32,000 nucleotides of DNA from Erysipelotrichaceae bacterium (GCA_963663995.1 OY760660.1:1830001-1862000); one strand, 5' to 3'. Numbered from the stretch's first letter, positions 7,112 through 32,000 are shown. The notes: a model not told the origin generated them from the letters alone. Program-made: numbers and translations.

Positions 7112-7290
7112 AAAAAGCGCCTCAAAAAATTGATGCGCCTTCGTCTTTTTACCTGAAAGATTCTCTTACGATTGCTTCTTCGGTGGATTGACTCTCTCTA
7201 CGAAGTGTGTCCAAAACCGGTCCTTTTGCCTGAGCGTTAGCTGCGCGTATGCGCCTTCGGCGTCTTATCTTCATAAGATCTCTCCCGGTT
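7112..7290 (-). promoter_or_regulatory. Tandem glycine riboswitch (two aptamers plus terminator-type expression platform) controlling gcvT-H-PA-PB
   Basis: Read on the minus strand. Aptamer 1 is GGGAGAG...CGCCGAAGGCGCA...CTCAGGCAAAAGGACCGG (about 7288-7217). Aptamer 2 is AGAGAGAG...CACCGAAGAAGCAA...CTTTCAGGTAAAAAGACGAAGG (about 7200-7141). The aptamer-2 P1 strands CTTCGT/ACGAAG overlap the 5' arm of a weak hairpin AAGGCGC...GCGCUUU followed by a U-run just before the gcvT SD. This matches the known ON-switch logic. Confidence 0.9.
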
Positions 7291-7311
7291 TCTTCATCCT
7301 TATTAGTTCTT

Positions 7312-18549: not shown

Positions 18550-18578
18550 TGTAAGTTTATGAAAATAGATGAAAACGC

Positions 18579-18606
18579 TTGCATTTCAATATCAAAGGAC
18601 TAAAAT
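18579..18606 (+). promoter_or_regulatory. Sigma-A-type promoter of the ankyrin/EF-G2 leader
   Basis: TTGCAT (18579-18584), 16 nt, then TAAAAT (18601-18606). Confidence 0.55.
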
Positions 18607-18641
18607 AGAATTAACAAGATTTTAGAAAGAAGGTCCACATT

Positions 18642-18749
18642 ATGTTAGGGGTCAAAAAGACAATCGATCCACTTCATTTAGCGCTCCACGAGGATGCGCT
18701 CTTAACTTGTGGAATTCTGAAATCAAATCGTATTTTAAAGATGGGTTAA
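18642..18749 (+). CDS. Candidate 35-codon leader peptide (MLGVKKTIDPLHLALHEDALLTCGILKSNRILKMG)
   Basis: AGAAAGAAGGT (18624-18634) matches 10 of 11 positions of the complement of this organism's own 16S 3' tail (AGAAAGGAGGT). It sits 7 nt before ATG 18642. The last sense codons form the 5' arm of the downstream terminator and the TAA stop (18747-18749) lies in its loop. There is no homology evidence. Confidence 0.45.
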   Translation: MLGVKKTIDPLHLALHEDALLTCGILKSNRILKMG

Positions 18750-18768
18750 GTGTGTCCATCTTTTTTTT
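18737..18768 (+). terminator. Intrinsic terminator inside the leader, upstream of the ankyrin gene (attenuator)
   Basis: AAAGATGG (18737-18744) pairs with CCATCTTT (18756-18763) around an 11-nt loop. The T-run spans 18761-18768 (8 T). Confidence 0.75.
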
Positions 18769-18801
18769 ACGAATGTTTGAGAAATGAGGAGGAAAACACA
18801 A

Positions 18802-19470
18802 ATGGATCAAACAAATCAACTTTTCTGGGACGCTGCAGCCGCAGGTGACTTCCAGAAAGTCGTCGCAGCTATTAATCAAGGTGCAGACGTTAATATTCGC
18901 AATGGCGAAGCTAGAACAGCTTTAATGCGTAGTTCTAAACGTGGACATGAAAAGGTTGTTCGTTATCTATTAGATAAAGGCGCAGACGTTAATGCCCGTG
19001 ATAATAATGGGAAAACTGCACTGATGGGTGCAAGTAAAAAAGGACATTTATCAATCGTTAAAATGTTCTTAGATCTTGATGCTGATGTGAATGCCCAAGA
19101 TGTTAAAGGTCGTACAGCCTTAATGAGAGCTAGTTTACTAGGACATGATGAAGTTGTCGATTTACTTGTAAGTGCTGGCGCAAAAGTGAATCAAATTGAT
19201 GAAATGGGTCGTACAGCTTTAATGGAAGCATGTAATGCCTTTAGATTTGAAGTAATTAAACATTTAATAAACGCAGACGCAGATGTGAATGTACAAGATG
19301 CTAATGGAGTCACTGCACTAATGAGAGCTGCTTATACAGGCTACGCTCAAATGGTTGAGTATTTACTAGATCATAGTGCTAATAAAGAAGTGTTGGATGC
19401 AGATGGGAATAAAGCCATGCATTATGTAAGACAAGATTGTTTAACGGAACTTAAACCGTTACTGAAGTGA
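18802..19470 (+). CDS. Cytoplasmic ankyrin-repeat protein (six 33-aa repeats plus a C-terminal cap)
   Basis: ORF 18784..19470 trimmed to ATG 18802, which is preceded by GAGGAGGA. 222 aa with no signal peptide. The repeats read G(R/K)TALM.A...GH..VV..LL..GADVNA.D, with TALM replacing the canonical TPLH. The corresponding 99-nt periodicity is visible in the DNA (GCAGACGTTAAT / GCTGATGTGAAT). Confidence 0.9.
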   Translation: MDQTNQLFWDAAAAGDFQKVVAAINQGADVNIRNGEARTALMRSSKRGHEKVVRYLLDKGADVNARDNNGKTALMGASKKGHLSIVKMFLDLDADVNAQDVKGRTALMRASLLGHDEVVDLLVSAGAKVNQIDEMGRTALMEACNAFRFEVIKHLINADADVNVQDANGVTALMRAAYTGYAQMVEYLLDHSANKEVLDADGNKAMHYVRQDCLTELKPLLK

Positions 19471-19480
19471 GGAATGATAG

Positions 19481-21562
19481 ATGAAAGATTATGCAGCCCA
19501 AGATGTTAAAAATGTTGTCTTACTAGGTCACTCAGGAGCTGGTAAAACTAGCTTAGTTGAATCAATGTTGCACTTTACGAATGCCTCTGATCGCTTAGGT
19601 AAAAATGCAGATGGTTCATCCTTATTAGATTTTGATCCTGAAGAAGCCAAACGTGGAACTTCCGTTTTTACAAGTATTGCACCTGTTGAATGGAAAAATC
19701 ATAAAATTAATTTTATTGATACACCAGGCTATTTCGACTATGCTCAAGAAATGCTAGCTGGTTTATCAGTTGCGGATAACGCTTTGATTGTTGTTGATGG
19801 CCGTGATGGTGTGCAAACTGGAACGATTCGCTCTTTTAAAGCAGCTAATGAATTAAAATATCCAATTCTATTTTTTATTAATAAACTTGATGAAGAAAAT
19901 TCATCCTTTGAAAAAGTTTTAGAACAATTAAGAGAACAATTTGGTAAAAGTGTTATTCCCTTTGAAATGCCAATTATGGAAAATGGTGCGATTATTGGAT
20001 CCATCAATATTCTTAAAGATAAAGCTTGGTATTTAAGTGATCCTGAAACACCAAAAGATGTTCCTGAACATTTAAAGTCACATGTTGATGAATATGTGGA
20101 AATGATTAAAGAAGCCGTCGCAATGGAAAGCGAAGACTTAATGGAAAAATACTTTAGTGGTGAAGAATTTAGTGACACAGAACTTCTCCAAGGTGTACGT
20201 ATTGGGGTTAGAAATGGTGATATTCATCCTGTTTACTCAGGTAGCGCTACACATTCGGTAGGAATTCGTAGACTTATGGATTTAATTGGTGAATATTTCC
20301 CATCCTATGGAGAACTTGGAACGATTAAAGCGAAAAATTTAAAAGGTGAAGAAGTCGAACTTCATACAAATGAAGAAGAAATTTTCTCAGCTCAAATTTA
20401 TAAAACGATTGTTGATCCATTTGTTGGTCGTATATCGCTTTTAAAAGTTCTAAGTGGAACACTCAGTTCAGATACCCACGTTTATAATGCTAATAAAGAA
20501 GAAGCAGAAAAAATATCACAAGTCTTCATTATTAAGGGCAAACATCAAATTGCTGTAGGAAAACTCTTTACCGGCGATTTAGGTGCGATTGTTAAACTTC
20601 AACACTCTCATACAAATGACACTTTAGCGACTAAAGAAAATCCTGTCATATATGAAGCTATTGAATTCCCTGAAGGTAATTTAGCCATGAGTATTTGGCC
20701 AGTATCTAAAAATGATGAAGATAAAATGAGTGGAGCTCTTCAAAGAATTGAAGAAGAAGATCCATCATGTAAAGTGATTAAGAATCCGGAAACCAATGAA
20801 GAAGTTGTATATGGTTTAGGAGATCAACACTTAGATGTTATTGTTTCAAGACTTAAAAATAAATACAAAGTAGATGTTGAACTTAAGGAACCTCGTATTC
20901 CTTATCGTGAAACAATTCGCGGTACTGTTACAGTTGAAGGTAAACATAAGAAACAATCGGGTGGAGCAGGACAATTTGGTGATGTCTTTATTACCTTTGA
21001 ACCTTGTGATGATGAAGATATGGTCTTTGAAGAAAAAATCTTTGGTGGAGCAGTTCCTCGTCAATACTTCCCAGCTGTTGAAGCGGGTTTACGTGAAGCC
21101 ATGGTTAAAGGTGTATTAGCAGGTTACAAAGTAGTGGGTGTTAAATGTACACTTGTTGATGGGAAATATCACGATGTTGATTCAAAGGAAATTGCCTTCA
21201 AGATGGCAGCTAAGAAAGCTTATCGAGCAGGAATGCCACAGGCAAAACCTGTTCTACTTGAACCAATTGTAAAAGCAGAAGTCACAGTGCCTGAAGAATT
21301 TACAGGAACAGTTATTGGAGATTTTAATAAACGTCGCGGAATTATCTTAGGTATGGATTTTAATGAAGATGGTGAACAAATTGTTTCAGCAGAAGTACCT
21401 ATGAGTGAAATGATGCGTTATTCAACTGAATTAAGATCGTTCACACAGGGGGTTGGTATATATAAACAAAGCTTTGAAAGATATGACGTGGCACCACCTA
21501 ATATTGCAGATAGAGTTATTAAAGAATCAAATCATAAAGTCGACGAAGACGACGACGATTAA
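19481..21562 (+). CDS. EF-G2-type (EF-G-like) translational GTPase paralog
   Basis: 693 aa. P-loop GHSGAGKTS, switch II DTPGYFDY (Tyr where EF-G has the catalytic His), G4 NKLD. The domain IV tip is intact (KHKKQSGGAGQFGDV, DGKYHDVDS). Acidic tail KVDEDDDD. The SD TGAGGA overlaps the ankyrin stop, with a 10-nt gap. It is not in an rpsL-rpsG-fusA-tuf context. Confidence 0.85.
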   Translation: MKDYAAQDVKNVVLLGHSGAGKTSLVESMLHFTNASDRLGKNADGSSLLDFDPEEAKRGTSVFTSIAPVEWKNHKINFIDTPGYFDYAQEMLAGLSVADNALIVVDGRDGVQTGTIRSFKAANELKYPILFFINKLDEENSSFEKVLEQLREQFGKSVIPFEMPIMENGAIIGSINILKDKAWYLSDPETPKDVPEHLKSHVDEYVEMIKEAVAMESEDLMEKYFSGEEFSDTELLQGVRIGVRNGDIHPVYSGSATHSVGIRRLMDLIGEYFPSYGELGTIKAKNLKGEEVELHTNEEEIFSAQIYKTIVDPFVGRISLLKVLSGTLSSDTHVYNANKEEAEKISQVFIIKGKHQIAVGKLFTGDLGAIVKLQHSHTNDTLATKENPVIYEAIEFPEGNLAMSIWPVSKNDEDKMSGALQRIEEEDPSCKVIKNPETNEEVVYGLGDQHLDVIVSRLKNKYKVDVELKEPRIPYRETIRGTVTVEGKHKKQSGGAGQFGDVFITFEPCDDEDMVFEEKIFGGAVPRQYFPAVEAGLREAMVKGVLAGYKVVGVKCTLVDGKYHDVDSKEIAFKMAAKKAYRAGMPQAKPVLLEPIVKAEVTVPEEFTGTVIGDFNKRRGIILGMDFNEDGEQIVSAEVPMSEMMRYSTELRSFTQGVGIYKQSFERYDVAPPNIADRVIKESNHKVDEDDDD

Positions 21563-21571
21563 ACTTGAGAG

Positions 21572-21601
21572 AGCATGTATATCACATACATGCTTTTTTT
21601 T
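21572..21601 (+). terminator. Strong rho-independent terminator after the EF-G2 gene
   Basis: AGCATGTAT-ATCAC-ATACATGCT (9-bp stem) followed by a run of T. Confidence 0.9.
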
Positions 21602-21633: not shown

Positions 21634-22107
21634 ATGAATTTAAACAACGAGAAAACGTGTATAGATCTCTTGGAAAAAAGAGGTGTAAAAGTTGAAGATA
21701 TCGCAGACTGTGCGATGCATCTTCAAAAGAAATATCATCCAGAAATTACACTTGAAGAAAGCATTGATATGGTCCATACGGTTATTGCGAAAAGGGAAGT
21801 ACAACATGCTATCTTAACGGGTATTCAATTAGATATTATGGCTGATTCAAATCATGAAATGGTCGGTAATTTAAAAGAAATCCTAAAAAGTGATGAAGGA
21901 TTATATGGAATAGATGAAGTTTTGGCATATGGTATTTGTAATCTCTATGGATCAATCGCATTGACAAATTATGGCTACATTGATAAAGAAAAGCCTTGTA
22001 TTATTGGTGAGTTAAACGATGATAAAAATCAATGTAATTGTTTCTTAGATGATATTGTCGGTGCGATTGCAGCTGCTGTCGCATCAAAAATTGCGCATAA
22101 TAGTTAG
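21634..22107 (+). CDS. Phosphatidylglycerophosphatase A family protein (YutG-like)
   Basis: ORF 21565..22107 trimmed to ATG 21634. The upstream part of the ORF covers the terminator and a TGTATAAT promoter at 21601-21608. 157 aa. The C-terminal FLDDIVGAIAAAVASKIAH is typical of PgpA/YutG. Confidence 0.7.
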   Translation: MNLNNEKTCIDLLEKRGVKVEDIADCAMHLQKKYHPEITLEESIDMVHTVIAKREVQHAILTGIQLDIMADSNHEMVGNLKEILKSDEGLYGIDEVLAYGICNLYGSIALTNYGYIDKEKPCIIGELNDDKNQCNCFLDDIVGAIAAAVASKIAHNS

Positions 22108-22118
22108 GAGCTATAAAA

Positions 22119-22559
22119 ATGAAAAAACTAATCGCAAGTGTTATGGTTATCAGCCTATTATTAACAGGCTGTGCAGAAAAAGGGATAACAGATGTTAAAC
22201 CAAGTGCTATCTTAAATCAATTTGAACAAGAAGAAAGTTTTATTGTATATCTAGGTTTATCTTATTGTTCAGCGTGTAAAATATTTAGATCTGTCATTGA
22301 AACAGCTCTGCAAACAGAAGATTTTGATGTTCTTTATTTAGAATATGATAAATTGATGGAAAATGAATCAGATGCAGCAGACTTAGAAAAACTAATTCCA
22401 GATTTTCTTGAACAAAATGAAGCATTTAGTTATACTTTCCCGATTTTATATGTTGTTGATAAAGGGGTCATCATTGATCAATTTTCACTTCAACAAACAG
22501 ATACAGAAACTGAATTTATAGACCGTTTAAAAGCGGATGGAGTACTCGTGAGTGAGTAG
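22119..22559 (+). CDS. Thioredoxin-fold lipoprotein (CSAC motif)
   Basis: 146 aa. MKKLIASVMVISLLLTGCAEKG is a lipoprotein signal with lipobox LLTGC. FIVYLGLSYCSACKIF places a CxxC after beta-1. SD AGGAG overlaps the upstream stop. Confidence 0.7.
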   Translation: MKKLIASVMVISLLLTGCAEKGITDVKPSAILNQFEQEESFIVYLGLSYCSACKIFRSVIETALQTEDFDVLYLEYDKLMENESDAADLEKLIPDFLEQNEAFSYTFPILYVVDKGVIIDQFSLQQTDTETEFIDRLKADGVLVSE

Positions 22560-23343
22560 TGAAAAAGAAGTTTCGATTATCACTAGAAATAAATTAAAAG
22601 AACAATTTTTGGCGTGTGGACTTCACAAAGGCGATATCGTCGAAGTACACGCCTCTTTAAAATCTATTGGCTATATTGTTGGTGGCCCACAGGTTGTTTT
22701 GGATGCTTTAGTGGATACAATAGGAATTGAAGGAACGATAGTTATGGCTGCACAAGCCTATGACAATTCAGAACCAGCTTTCTTTGAACATCCTCCGATT
22801 CCTGTTGAAGATTATAAAGCTTTTAGAGAATCACGACCTGTCAATCGCAATAAACTAGAGAATATTAATCATATGGGTGAACTTGCGAAGGCTTTGATGG
22901 CTCGTCCGAATAGTTATATATCTGAACATCCACGTGATGCGTTTATATCAATGGGTAAATATGCTAAGTGGATTACTCAAAACCATCCTTTAAATGCAGA
23001 ATTAGGACCAGACTCTCCGCTTGGGAAAATGTTAGAACTAAAATCTAAGATATGTTTAATCGGTGTCGATTATGACAATGCAACAGGTATGCATTTAGGT
23101 GAACATCTCAGTGCGAAGCGTGAACACATTTTACAAGGTGCACGTATTCTAGTTCATGGTGAAAGCAAGTGGGTAAAGTTTAATGCGACTGATTATAACT
23201 CTGATGACTTTATTGAGCCAGGAAAAAGACTTGAGAAAAACGGTTTAGTAAGATTTGGACAAATTGGCCAAGCTAAGGTAAAGTTATTTACATTAGAAGC
23301 GGCAACACAAGTGTGTAAAGCTTACTTTGAGGAGGTCTTATGA
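22552..23343 (+). CDS. AAC(3)-family aminoglycoside N-acetyltransferase-like protein (YokD-like)
   Basis: 263 aa. GTG start overlapping the upstream gene by 8 nt. GDIVEVHASLKSIGYIVGGPQVVLDALVDTIGIEGTIVMAAQ is typical of the family. Confidence 0.75.
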   Translation: MSSEKEVSIITRNKLKEQFLACGLHKGDIVEVHASLKSIGYIVGGPQVVLDALVDTIGIEGTIVMAAQAYDNSEPAFFEHPPIPVEDYKAFRESRPVNRNKLENINHMGELAKALMARPNSYISEHPRDAFISMGKYAKWITQNHPLNAELGPDSPLGKMLELKSKICLIGVDYDNATGMHLGEHLSAKREHILQGARILVHGESKWVKFNATDYNSDDFIEPGKRLEKNGLVRFGQIGQAKVKLFTLEAATQVCKAYFEEVL

Positions 23344-23795
23344 AGGGTGTATTAAGAGTTATTAAAAGTTATGTAGAAGTTGAAGTTAAAGATGGTGCCA
23401 TCGTTGGATGTGAATTTTGCGATGCTAACGAAATTGATTTAAAAGATGAACCACTATTAATTGAGCTACAAAAGCAATTTGATGAATATACGCATTTTAC
23501 GCGTCATGCATTTGATATTCCACTCTTTGTTGAAGGGACTGAGTTTCAACTAAAAGTCTGGGATGCTTTATGTAAAATTCCATTTGGTGAACTTAGAACC
23601 TATAAACAAATCGCTGAGCAAATTGGTGAACCTAAAGCATTTAGAGCGGTTGGTGGAGCTTGTAATAAAAATCCAATTGGAATCATTATTCCATGCCACC
23701 GTGTGGTGGGATCAAATGGAAAACTTACAGGTTATGCTGGTGGTTTAGATTTGAAACAGTTTTTACTCAATCATGAAAATACCATTAACAAGTAG
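23340..23795 (+). CDS. ogt: Methylated-DNA--protein-cysteine methyltransferase
   Basis: 151 aa. Active site IIIPCHRVVGSNGKLTGYAGG, and FQLKVWDALCKIPFGELRTY. ATGA overlap with the upstream gene. Confidence 0.9.
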   Translation: MKGVLRVIKSYVEVEVKDGAIVGCEFCDANEIDLKDEPLLIELQKQFDEYTHFTRHAFDIPLFVEGTEFQLKVWDALCKIPFGELRTYKQIAEQIGEPKAFRAVGGACNKNPIGIIIPCHRVVGSNGKLTGYAGGLDLKQFLLNHENTINK

Positions 23796-24942: not shown

Positions 24943-24977
24943 AAAACTATCCTAGCATATTTGTGATAAAATAAATA

Positions 24978-25100
24978 CCGTGAACAGGGGTGCCCATTCG
25001 GGCTGAGATGTGTTAAACACAAAACCCTCATCACCTGATCTAGTTAAGACTAGCGTAGGGAGCTCACTGCTCTTTACCTTCTTACATTACGGGAGGTATT
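24978..25100 (+). promoter_or_regulatory. TPP (THI-box) riboswitch with SD-sequestering expression platform
   Basis: Reads GGGGTGCCCATTCGGGCTGAGA...AAACCC...ACCTGATCTAGTTAAGACTAGCGTAGGGA. P1 pairs 24980-24985 with 25062-25067. Downstream, TACCTTC (25075-25081) can pair with GGAGGTA (25092-25098), which contains the thiT SD. Confidence 0.92.
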
Positions 25101-26476: not shown

Positions 26477-27998
<1,522 letters not shown>

Positions 27999-28070
27999 AA
28001 GGAGAAAGAATACATTTTAAAAAACCTATACGTTAGTTTCCTATTTAGTTTTGAGAGTTCAGCTCTCAGT

Positions 28071-28084
28071 GGTTCTTTGAAAAC
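28071..28084 (+). promoter_or_regulatory. Spacer boxA-like motif ahead of 23S
   Basis: GGTTCTTTGAAAAC is followed directly by the 5' half of the 23S processing stem (28080-28099), which pairs with 31226-31245. Confidence 0.6.
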
Positions 28085-28272
28085 CGAATAACAGATATGA
28101 AAAGACATGATCTTTCTGAATAGTTGAAAAATTATTAGAAAAATTAAGATTTTTACATTACGAGAAACAAAAAACAATTTTTACAAATTGTTTTAGTTAA
28201 AAACAAAACAGTAATCAAAGCAATCAAAGTATATTTTATATACGTGAACACACATATAAAAAAATCAAACGT

Positions 28273-31168
<2,896 letters not shown>

Positions 31169-31264
31169 CCCATAACTAATAAAAAAACATCAATTATTTC
31201 AGAAAGAGAAATAGCCCTTTATAAACATATCTATTATTCGGTTTTGAGAGAATCAACTCTCAGA

Positions 31265-31378
31265 TCTGGTGACGATAGCGTAGTGGTCACACCTGTTCCC
31301 ATCCCGAACACAGAAGTTAAGCACTACAGCGGTGACAATAGCACGGCGTGCCCGTGTCAAGATAACACGTTGCCGGTT
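31265..31378 (+). rRNA. rrf: 5S ribosomal RNA
   Basis: TCTGGTGACGATAGCGTAGTGGTCACACCTGTTCCCATCCCGAACACAGAAGTTAAGC aligns with Firmicutes 5S. The 3' GTTGCCGG pairs with the 5' end. Confidence 0.93.

Positions 31379-31745: not shown

Positions 31746-32000
<255 letters not shown>

Follow-up and report, generated by a model that had tools for sequence, protein, structure and literature searches.

What does it mean that a second gene for elongation factor G (EF-G) lies immediately behind a gene for an ankyrin-repeat protein, and are the two products partners? The question is raised by a locus in a stretch of 32,000 nucleotides (nt) from an Erysipelotrichaceae bacterium (GCA_963663995.1 OY760660.1:1830001-1862000), here called the window, in which an earlier note had described the two genes as a discrete unit. 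The first gene, which we call ank, encodes a protein made up of ankyrin repeats, and the second an EF-G paralog of the type known as EFG II or EF-G2. We see about an even prospect that they form a regulated operon for a probably GTPase-deficient EFG II paralog and a dedicated ankyrin-repeat partner. EFG II and its switch II without the catalytic His are already known; in the literature on ankyrin with EF-G or with Erysipelotrichaceae we found no paper that describes the pairing.

With regard to the junction, both open reading frames (ORFs), the gap and the ribosome-binding site given in the earlier note were found as described (Table 1). The ORFs share a strand with 10 nt between them, and the GAGG of the paralog's Shine-Dalgarno (SD) sequence overlaps the TGA stop codon of ank. 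That description came from one genome, and the adjacency proves to span Erysipelotrichaceae, being present in 79-81 of 83 genera. We surveyed 201 genomes of the family from these 83 genera, and used 51 loci, mostly one per genus, for all counts of junctions, leaders, catabolite-responsive element (cre) sites and residues. An ank ortholog (46-90% identity) is present in 193 genomes and 81 genera and the EF-G2 paralog in 188 genomes and 79 genera, with both genes in 188. In all 133 genomes for which both coordinates are listed ank is directly upstream of the paralog and on the same strand, the matched ends being 4-45 nt apart with a median of 15. A further 80 named loci include 78 with the genes directly adjacent, one with an 84-nt gap and one in which the contig ends after ank. 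At the 51 loci the two genes are separated by 7-24 nt, apart from a single 4-nt overlap, and the junction usually includes TAGGAGG.

The genes flanking the pair vary between genera, and the unit is kept in nearly every genus despite this. The two genes are also lost together. The eight genomes without ank are also without the paralog, and the five of them that were checked keep EF-G1 only; the paralog without ank was found in none of the 201 family genomes. Five genomes appeared to have ank only, and in three of these the paralog is cut by a contig end beside ank. Of the other two, one has only pieces of both genes, which lie on different contigs, and the other is a 76%-complete assembly in which no paralog was seen. 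As for ankyrin genes elsewhere, an EF-G neighbour was found at none of about 65 unrelated ankyrin loci from other phyla.

The sister family in the same order serves as a natural control, for which paralog residues, tail and cre-like sites were compared at 14 loci. There the paralog (41-47% identical) stands alone: no ank ortholog was found, and the leader ORF and terminator that precede ank in most genera of Erysipelotrichaceae are absent. The switch II residue discussed below is Tyr in 48 of the 51 Erysipelotrichaceae orthologs, and Ser, Thr or Ala in 13 of the 14 sister-family proteins. An acidic C-terminus, with at least three Asp or Glu among the last six residues, is found in 34 of the 51 and in 0 of the 14. 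Ank, the leader and the switch II Tyr thus typify Erysipelotrichaceae and are for the most part missing from the sister family, and the acidic tail is frequent in Erysipelotrichaceae alone. As the sister family has the paralog without ank, the ankyrin partner is best seen as a lineage-specific addition. The solitary paralog has a conserved neighbourhood of its own, as it and a gene for a small membrane protein are usually divergent, the latter being followed by a gene for a cyclophilin-type peptidyl-prolyl isomerase (L099-L103).

The paralog has the five EF-G domains (Pfam GTP_EFTU, EF-G_D2, EFG_III, EFG_IV and EFG_C), and there is no rpsL, rpsG or tuf gene near it in the window. The earlier note held on this ground that it was not the housekeeping fusA, which is borne out by a separate rpsL-rpsG-fusA-tuf operon elsewhere in the genome (G000:C1, about 1189-1193 kb). 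The EF-G1 of that operon has AHIDAGKT, RGITI and DTPGH, and the paralog is 36% identical to it.

EFG II was defined by diagnostic positions (Margus, Remm and Tenson 2011, PMC3150367), and we have used these positions to assign the paralog. The type I positions are Gly16, Leu25 and Ser61 (in a relaxed RGITI) in the G domain, and Thr291, Gly333 and Lys352 in domain II, equivalent to 316, 360 and 379 in EF-G1 numbering; EFG II also has Lys-Lys at positions 471 and 472 in domain IV loop I (PMC3150367). We read the residues of the paralog from an alignment to Thermus EF-G, those in domain II being counted by hand. The G domain has G16, L25 (in GHSGAGKTSL) and S61 (in RGTSV), domain II has T310, G354 and K373 where EF-G1 has Ile, Ala and Gly, and domain IV loop I has K490-K491 (in GKHKKQSGG). 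Among the 51 family orthologs, 50 have V, L, I or F at position 25. The paralog also coexists with an EFG I copy in the str operon, as expected for EFG II. The EFG II (EF-G2) type, which the earlier note had proposed, is thus supported by these diagnostic residues.

The motifs listed in that note, GHSGAGKT, DTPGY and the domain IV tip motifs HKKQSGGAGQFG and DGKYHDVDS, are all present. The Tyr of DTPGY, Tyr84, does replace the catalytic His as had been said, but this is the norm in the subfamily and no peculiarity of this gene. In Mycobacterium smegmatis EF-G2 a Tyr likewise replaces the catalytic His, and the change H88Y in EF-G1 nearly abolishes its ribosome-dependent GTPase activity (bioRxiv 10.64898/2026.05.25.727771). 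By extension the EF-G2 discussed here is probably GTPase-deficient. The C-terminal DEDDDD had been singled out as unusual, which is correct for the exact string, as it is particular to this genome, but not for the acidic cluster, which recurs in the 34 orthologs counted above.

Several named protein models were tried for the paralog and rejected. With the model for canonical EF-G (FusA, TIGR00484) it scores 623.3 bits against a cut-off of 659.4, and it has Tyr84 for His and no str context. Two models for named EF-G2 proteins also failed (NF009377, 578 against 890 bits; NF058620, for Bacteroides, 575 against 1000 bits), so the paralog is no equivalog of those lineage-specific EF-G2 groups. The score as a Tet(M)/Tet(O) protection protein (NF012153, tet_protect) is 306 bits against a cut-off of 775. 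The best match of the paralog, NCBIfam NF009381, is not suitable as a subfamily marker because the genome's EF-G1 (831 bits) and 10 control genomes also pass it. In G021, G027, G036, G066, G100, G123, G126 and G139 the match to the paralog includes one or two in-frame TAA or TAG stop codons, which may reflect pseudogenes or assembly errors in metagenome bins.

In the case of the ank product Pfam scored five Ank stretches (Ank_2, PF12796, 1.6e-44; Ank, PF00023, 2.9e-42). An AlphaFold model built with 12 orthologs has a predicted local distance difference test (pLDDT) score of 96.6 and 14 helices in seven pairs, which are an N-cap, five repeats and a C-cap. The tandem 33-residue helix-turn-helix repeats and the curved solenoid place the protein among the ankyrin-repeat proteins, and the closest solved structures are a designed five-repeat DARPin (template modelling (TM) score 0.96) and, among natural solenoids, gankyrin (TM 0.92). 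The description in the earlier note, six ankyrin repeats with TALM in each, holds in that the protein is all ankyrin, but is approximate: TALM replaces TPLH in five repeats, which lie between two caps. The absence of a signal peptide was correctly noted, no hydrophobic stretch being visible at the N-terminus.

The gene is the sole ankyrin gene of the 1.95-Mb genome. The identity of a secreted effector (Dot/Icm Ank) was considered and rejected, as the matches were to the repeats alone and far below cut-offs (AnkY 92 against 600); the lack of a visible signal peptide and the standing of ank as a family-wide core gene further oppose it. A reading as a defence system was also dropped, since the PADLOC models gave just generic ankyrin-repeat matches and weak P-loop matches.

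The protein is 222-224 amino acids (aa) long at 50 of the 51 loci and 228 aa at the other (L133). Across the 51 genera the median pairwise identity is 59%, with 35% of positions at least 90% conserved. Repeat positions 5, 10, 13 and 14, which are those of the concave groove, are invariant or nearly so, and positions 2, 3 and 33 at the hairpin tips vary. The conserved groove residues are R38, R43, K46, R47, K71, K79, K80, R104, R109, R137, E142, R175 and Y178. The protein as a whole is near neutral (median isoelectric point 6.2), and its basic character is confined to the groove. This pattern fits a single conserved ligand held in a largely basic groove, and by inference the acidic tail of EF-G2 would be a candidate for that ligand.

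Upstream of ank there is a promoter-like sequence with a cre-like palindrome over its -35 hexamer, followed by a short leader ORF and an intrinsic terminator. The promoter layout is conserved in orthologous loci as cgcTTGCA ... TAcAAT. In the window the leader TAA (18747-18749) falls within the terminator hairpin (18737-18763), the layout of a leader attenuator of the msrDL type. A script found a leader ORF of 17-47 codons with its stop -4 to +13 nt from the start of a hairpin in 45 of the 51 genera, and inspection by eye added 3; the stop is at the hairpin base (-4 to +1) at 29 loci and further inside, in the loop or the 5' arm (+2 to +13), at 16. The sequences of leader peptide and hairpin differ between genera, and the hairpins keep the same place.

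Some details of the leaders should be recorded here. In the hairpin-base class the stop codon is inside a conserved TTTTAAGRTGG string and the peptide ends in Phe (TTT); in the second class, which includes the window, the frame is shifted, translation continues through AAG ATG G and the stop codon comes in the hairpin's 5' arm or its loop. Phe ends 20 of the 29 hairpin-base leaders, and as 19 of the 20 have it as TTT within TTTTAAGRTGG, selection on the amino acid and on the nucleotides are inseparable. The NusG pause motif TTNTTT, looked for by eye, fits just some of the leaders. The leader in full gives a fold of -45.3 kcal/mol (z = -4.6), and in its RNA (window 18612-18724) the 5' part that holds the SD and start codon is able to pair with the leader ORF's 3' end. 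A related genus has TTCATAA/TTATGAA in place of TCCACA/TGTGGA, which looks compensatory. One locus (L119; G053, genus g32) is without leader ORF or terminator and has a promoter-like region near the ank SD, so that at least one genus has lost the putative attenuator and kept the gene pair.

A cre-like site is present upstream of ank at 26 of the 51 loci, against 1.7 on average and at most 5 in shuffled sequences and 1 of 49 in downstream control regions. It is also present upstream of 8 of the 14 solitary paralogs in the sister family. The window's own site has one mismatch and, taken alone, does not reach significance. A genuine site would mean that good sugars repress the operon; among the genome's LacI-family proteins the best match to the ccpA model has 265 bits, below the cut-off of 442.

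The earlier note had placed terminators on both sides of the pair, and both are there: the hairpin and T-run at 18737-18763, and a downstream terminator at about 21567-21601, which folds at -18.1 kcal/mol (z = -4.9) and whose hairpin and T8 were missed by the terminator scanner. Its further claim of a transcription unit of its own thus stands as far as the bracketing terminators go, but this is probably not an autonomous constitutive operon, as there is a putative leader-ORF attenuator and a cre-like operator ahead of ank. We infer that ank and the EF-G2 gene are co-transcribed as one regulated two-gene operon.

We can suggest how such an operon might work. A CcpA-like regulator would repress transcription when good sugars are present. 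A ribosome that finishes the leader ORF, or is held at its stop codon, would sit over the terminator's 5' arm and allow RNA polymerase to read through, as in msrDL-msrD, where a ribosome held at the leader stop codon blocks an intrinsic terminator (PMC10314930). The operon would on this basis be expressed under limited carbon or disturbed translation. Translational coupling would give similar amounts of Ank and EF-G2. Ank may then bind EF-G2, or the complex of EF-G2 with the ribosome, by its invariant and largely basic concave groove, for which the acidic C-terminal tail, rare in the sister family that has no ank, is the candidate docking element, and in this way Ank may tune the loading, release or stability of EF-G2. 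Since Tyr takes the place of the catalytic His, EF-G2 would do its work with no GTP hydrolysis stimulated by the ribosome. Its role would be that of a slow translocase which saves energy, as for the EF-G2 of Bacteroides, or that of a ribosome binder in times of stress, as for the mycobacterial EF-G2.

A more far-reaching form of this proposal, which we put forward tentatively and would ourselves rather doubt, would make Ank an obligate subunit in an alternative translation factor of two components, the groove gripping the tail or another surface of EF-G2 and controlling its engagement with the ribosome. There would also be a feedback loop, in which ribosomes lingering at the leader stop codon induce the operon and Ank-EF-G2 clears or resets them.

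There are several points that weigh against a partnership of Ank and EF-G2. Both the partnership and the co-transcription are read from sequence. Folding the two products as one artificial chain was considered and rejected, since a linker of about 4 residues would dictate the geometry and nothing in the biology points to such a fusion. Adjacent genes may be kept or lost jointly for regulatory reasons, and a single deletion can explain the loss of both. The sister family runs the paralog without an ankyrin protein, so in principle the factor needs none. The acidic tail is weak or missing in about a third of the orthologs, and when a docking patch was sought among the 74 positions that are conserved in Erysipelotrichaceae EF-G2 and different in the sister family, none was marked, these positions being spread over all domains with a mild excess in G/G'. 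The cre-like site is present in only about half of the genera, and the best CcpA-like protein is below the ccpA cut-off. In ankyrin repeats generally position 5 is most often Arg and position 13 most often basic, and part of the basic groove may thus mirror a consensus-like scaffold; the Arg at position 10 (within TALMR) is the more specific signature.

Another explanation is that there is co-regulation and nothing more. Both proteins would be needed in the same condition, such as carbon limitation or translation stress, and have unrelated targets, with Ank a general scaffold or chaperone and the gene order kept by the shared promoter and leader. The shared leader and cre-like operator do offer regulatory grounds for the linkage, ankyrin repeats have a wide variety of binding partners and the sister family shows that the paralog can work alone. 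However, this does not readily account for a 7-24 nt junction with the stop codon inside the SD across 51 genera, nor for the finding of rearrangement, split or single loss in 0 of 201 genomes from 83 genera, nor for the traits that set Erysipelotrichaceae apart from the sister family, where ank, the leader and the switch II Tyr are largely absent and the acidic tail is not common, and we consider it possible without being inclined to accept it. It is also conceivable that Ank acts on the other side of a switch between factors, binding either EF-G1 or the ribosome, for example at the L7/L12 stalk region or on rRNA, and holding back GTP-consuming translocation so that EF-G2 takes over. A basic invariant groove would suit an acidic protein surface or RNA, and the family-specific positions of EF-G2 form no obvious docking patch. 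In addition Bacteroides fusA falls while fusA2 rises on carbon limitation (PMC6989115), and mycobacterial EF-G2 has been described as a stress-specific regulator (bioRxiv 10.64898/2026.05.25.727771). Yet a binder of EF-G1 or the ribosome could be useful alone, and incomplete assemblies aside ank is kept without the paralog in none of the 201 genomes; the acidic tail of EF-G2 is common where there is ank and nearly absent where there is none, and the proposed target is itself conjectural. We regard this switch as unlikely.

The layout of the leader, with an ORF that ends at a terminator as in msrDL-msrD, could also suggest a module for response to antibiotics, on the model of Tet(M)/Tet(O) and of leader-attenuated ABC-F genes: a ribosome-targeting drug would induce the pair, which would protect or rescue ribosomes with Ank as cofactor. 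Tet(M) is an EF-G relative and is also behind a leader peptide and terminator, and the paralog has its distant match to tet_protect. That match is however far below cut-off, as given above, the loops at the tip of domain IV are of the EF-G and not the Tet type, and the gene is no mobile element but belongs to the vertically inherited core genome of the whole family. The unconserved sequences of the leader peptides argue against a specific drug-sensing nascent peptide, and the cre-like site points to carbon status, so that we think this very improbable. Hitch-hiking or chance is always a general possibility for adjacent genes, and nothing more than that can be said for it here; a pair that is conserved in 79-81 of 83 genera, whose proteins are 46-90% identical, whose junction is fixed where the flanks vary and whose members are lost jointly, leaves it with practically no claim to belief.

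A regulated operon for EF-G2 and an ankyrin partner can be compared with several known systems. The paralog resembles EFG II ('Clostridia' sub-subgroup; EF-G2 or EF-G-like), likewise a second EF-G outside the str operon beside EFG I, in the P-loop Gly (GHxxxGKT), the hydrophobic residue after GKTS, Ser for Thr in the relaxed G2 (RGTSV), the Thr, Gly and Lys of domain II, KK in domain IV loop I and the retention of five EF-G domains. The EFG II paper (PMC3150367) reports no conserved partner gene or context, whereas here the gene is fixed behind ank, a leader attenuator and often a cre-like site. M. smegmatis EF-G2 (PDB 9K0Z/9K10) has the same Tyr at the position of the switch II catalytic His, but is distant, the PDB match being 419 bits against 526 for canonical Thermus EF-G; the mycobacterial P-loop is more degenerate and no ankyrin partner is reported there.

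The EF-G2 of Bacteroides thetaiotaomicron (fusA2, BT2167; PDB 7uvp/8dmf) is an alternative EF-G that is induced on carbon limitation, 238-fold, via the master regulator of carbohydrate use (PMC6989115). The cre-like palindrome at the promoter here may point to the same carbon logic. However the protein does not reach the NF058620 cut-off, the Bacteroides regulator is different, and fusA2 stands by itself, with neither an ankyrin partner nor a leader attenuator. In msrDL-msrD, for a macrolide-resistance ABC-F protein, a short leader ORF also precedes a translation-factor gene, and the MsrD factor feeds back on its own leader (PMC10314930). MsrDL is a drug-sensing peptide of 6 residues, in contrast to the leaders discussed here, which have 17-47 codons and unconserved sequence, imply no drug and are known as predicted ORFs. 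Lastly there are the FusB-type proteins, small accessory proteins that bind EF-G and give fusidic acid resistance. They differ in having an unrelated fold that is not ankyrin, in binding canonical EF-G, and in being encoded by mobile or accessory resistance genes and not with an EF-G paralog.

EF-G2-type paralogs are widespread and their role is debated, with slow GTP-independent translocation (Bacteroides) and ribosome binding in times of stress (mycobacteria) both proposed. A tightly coupled, family-wide partner gene gives a concrete handle for testing that role, and experiments are feasible as there are several cultured carriers, among them Holdemania filiformis, Anaerorhabdus furcosa and Stecheria intestinalis. 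Erysipelotrichaceae are common in gut, rumen and digesters, and regulation by carbon status would parallel the situation in Bacteroides, where EF-G2 is required for gut colonisation. Bacterial ankyrin proteins are mostly discussed as secreted effectors, and the function proposed here, if true, would be an unusual housekeeping role for one of them. Were Ank indeed an obligate subunit, a bacterial translation GTPase would for the first time have a cofactor of the ankyrin type, and EF-G2 would have a defined job in Firmicutes.

Table 1. Positions of the two genes and of the elements associated with them, counted from the first nucleotide of the window
Feature	Position	Strand	Remarks
cre-like palindrome TGAAAACGCTTGCA	18570..18583	+	one mismatch to TGWNANCGNTNWCA; overlaps -35 hexamer
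Promoter-like TTGCAT, 16 nt spacer, TAAAAT	18579..18606	+	read from sequence
Leader SD (AGAAAGAAGGT) and 35-codon leader ORF (18642-18749; MLGVKK...ILKMG)	18624..18749	+	stop inside terminator
Intrinsic terminator (putative attenuator) between leader and ank	18737..18768	+	10-pair hairpin 18737-18763 and T-run found by scanner
ank	18802..19470	+	222-aa cytoplasmic ankyrin-repeat protein (N-cap, five TALM repeats, C-cap)
SD of EF-G paralog (GAGG)	19469..19472	+	overlaps ank stop codon
EFG II / EF-G2-type EF-G paralog gene	19481..21562	+	693 aa, five EF-G domains
Tyr84 codon, switch II DTPGY	19730..19732	+	aligns with catalytic His (DTPGH) of Thermus EF-G
Acidic C-terminal tail DEDDDD	21542..21559	+	end of EF-G paralog
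Downstream intrinsic terminator	21567..21601	+	GAGAGCATGTAT-loop-ATACATGC then T8; closes unit

With regard to annotation of ank, an alternative in-frame ATG at 18784, 18 nt 5' of the start in Table 1, is listed by the ORF finder and gives a 228-aa ORF. The start at 18802 is favoured because of the SD sequence GAGGAGG and the conserved MDQ start of the orthologs. The ATG at 18784 would start inside that SD, and automatic annotation may thus over-extend the gene.

The genes that follow the paralog in the window (21634-23795), for a PgpA/CobZ-like protein and an AAC(3)-like acetyltransferase, also follow it at a locus in another genus (L108, 1343-2574). The downstream neighbourhood is thus partly shared in some genera, and the flanks differ in others. 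Rfam matches elsewhere in the window are a thiamine pyrophosphate (TPP) riboswitch at 24976-25078 (+), a glycine riboswitch at 7208-7297 (-) and one complete rRNA operon at 26478-31378, directly downstream of which a second 16S gene begins (31899-32000).

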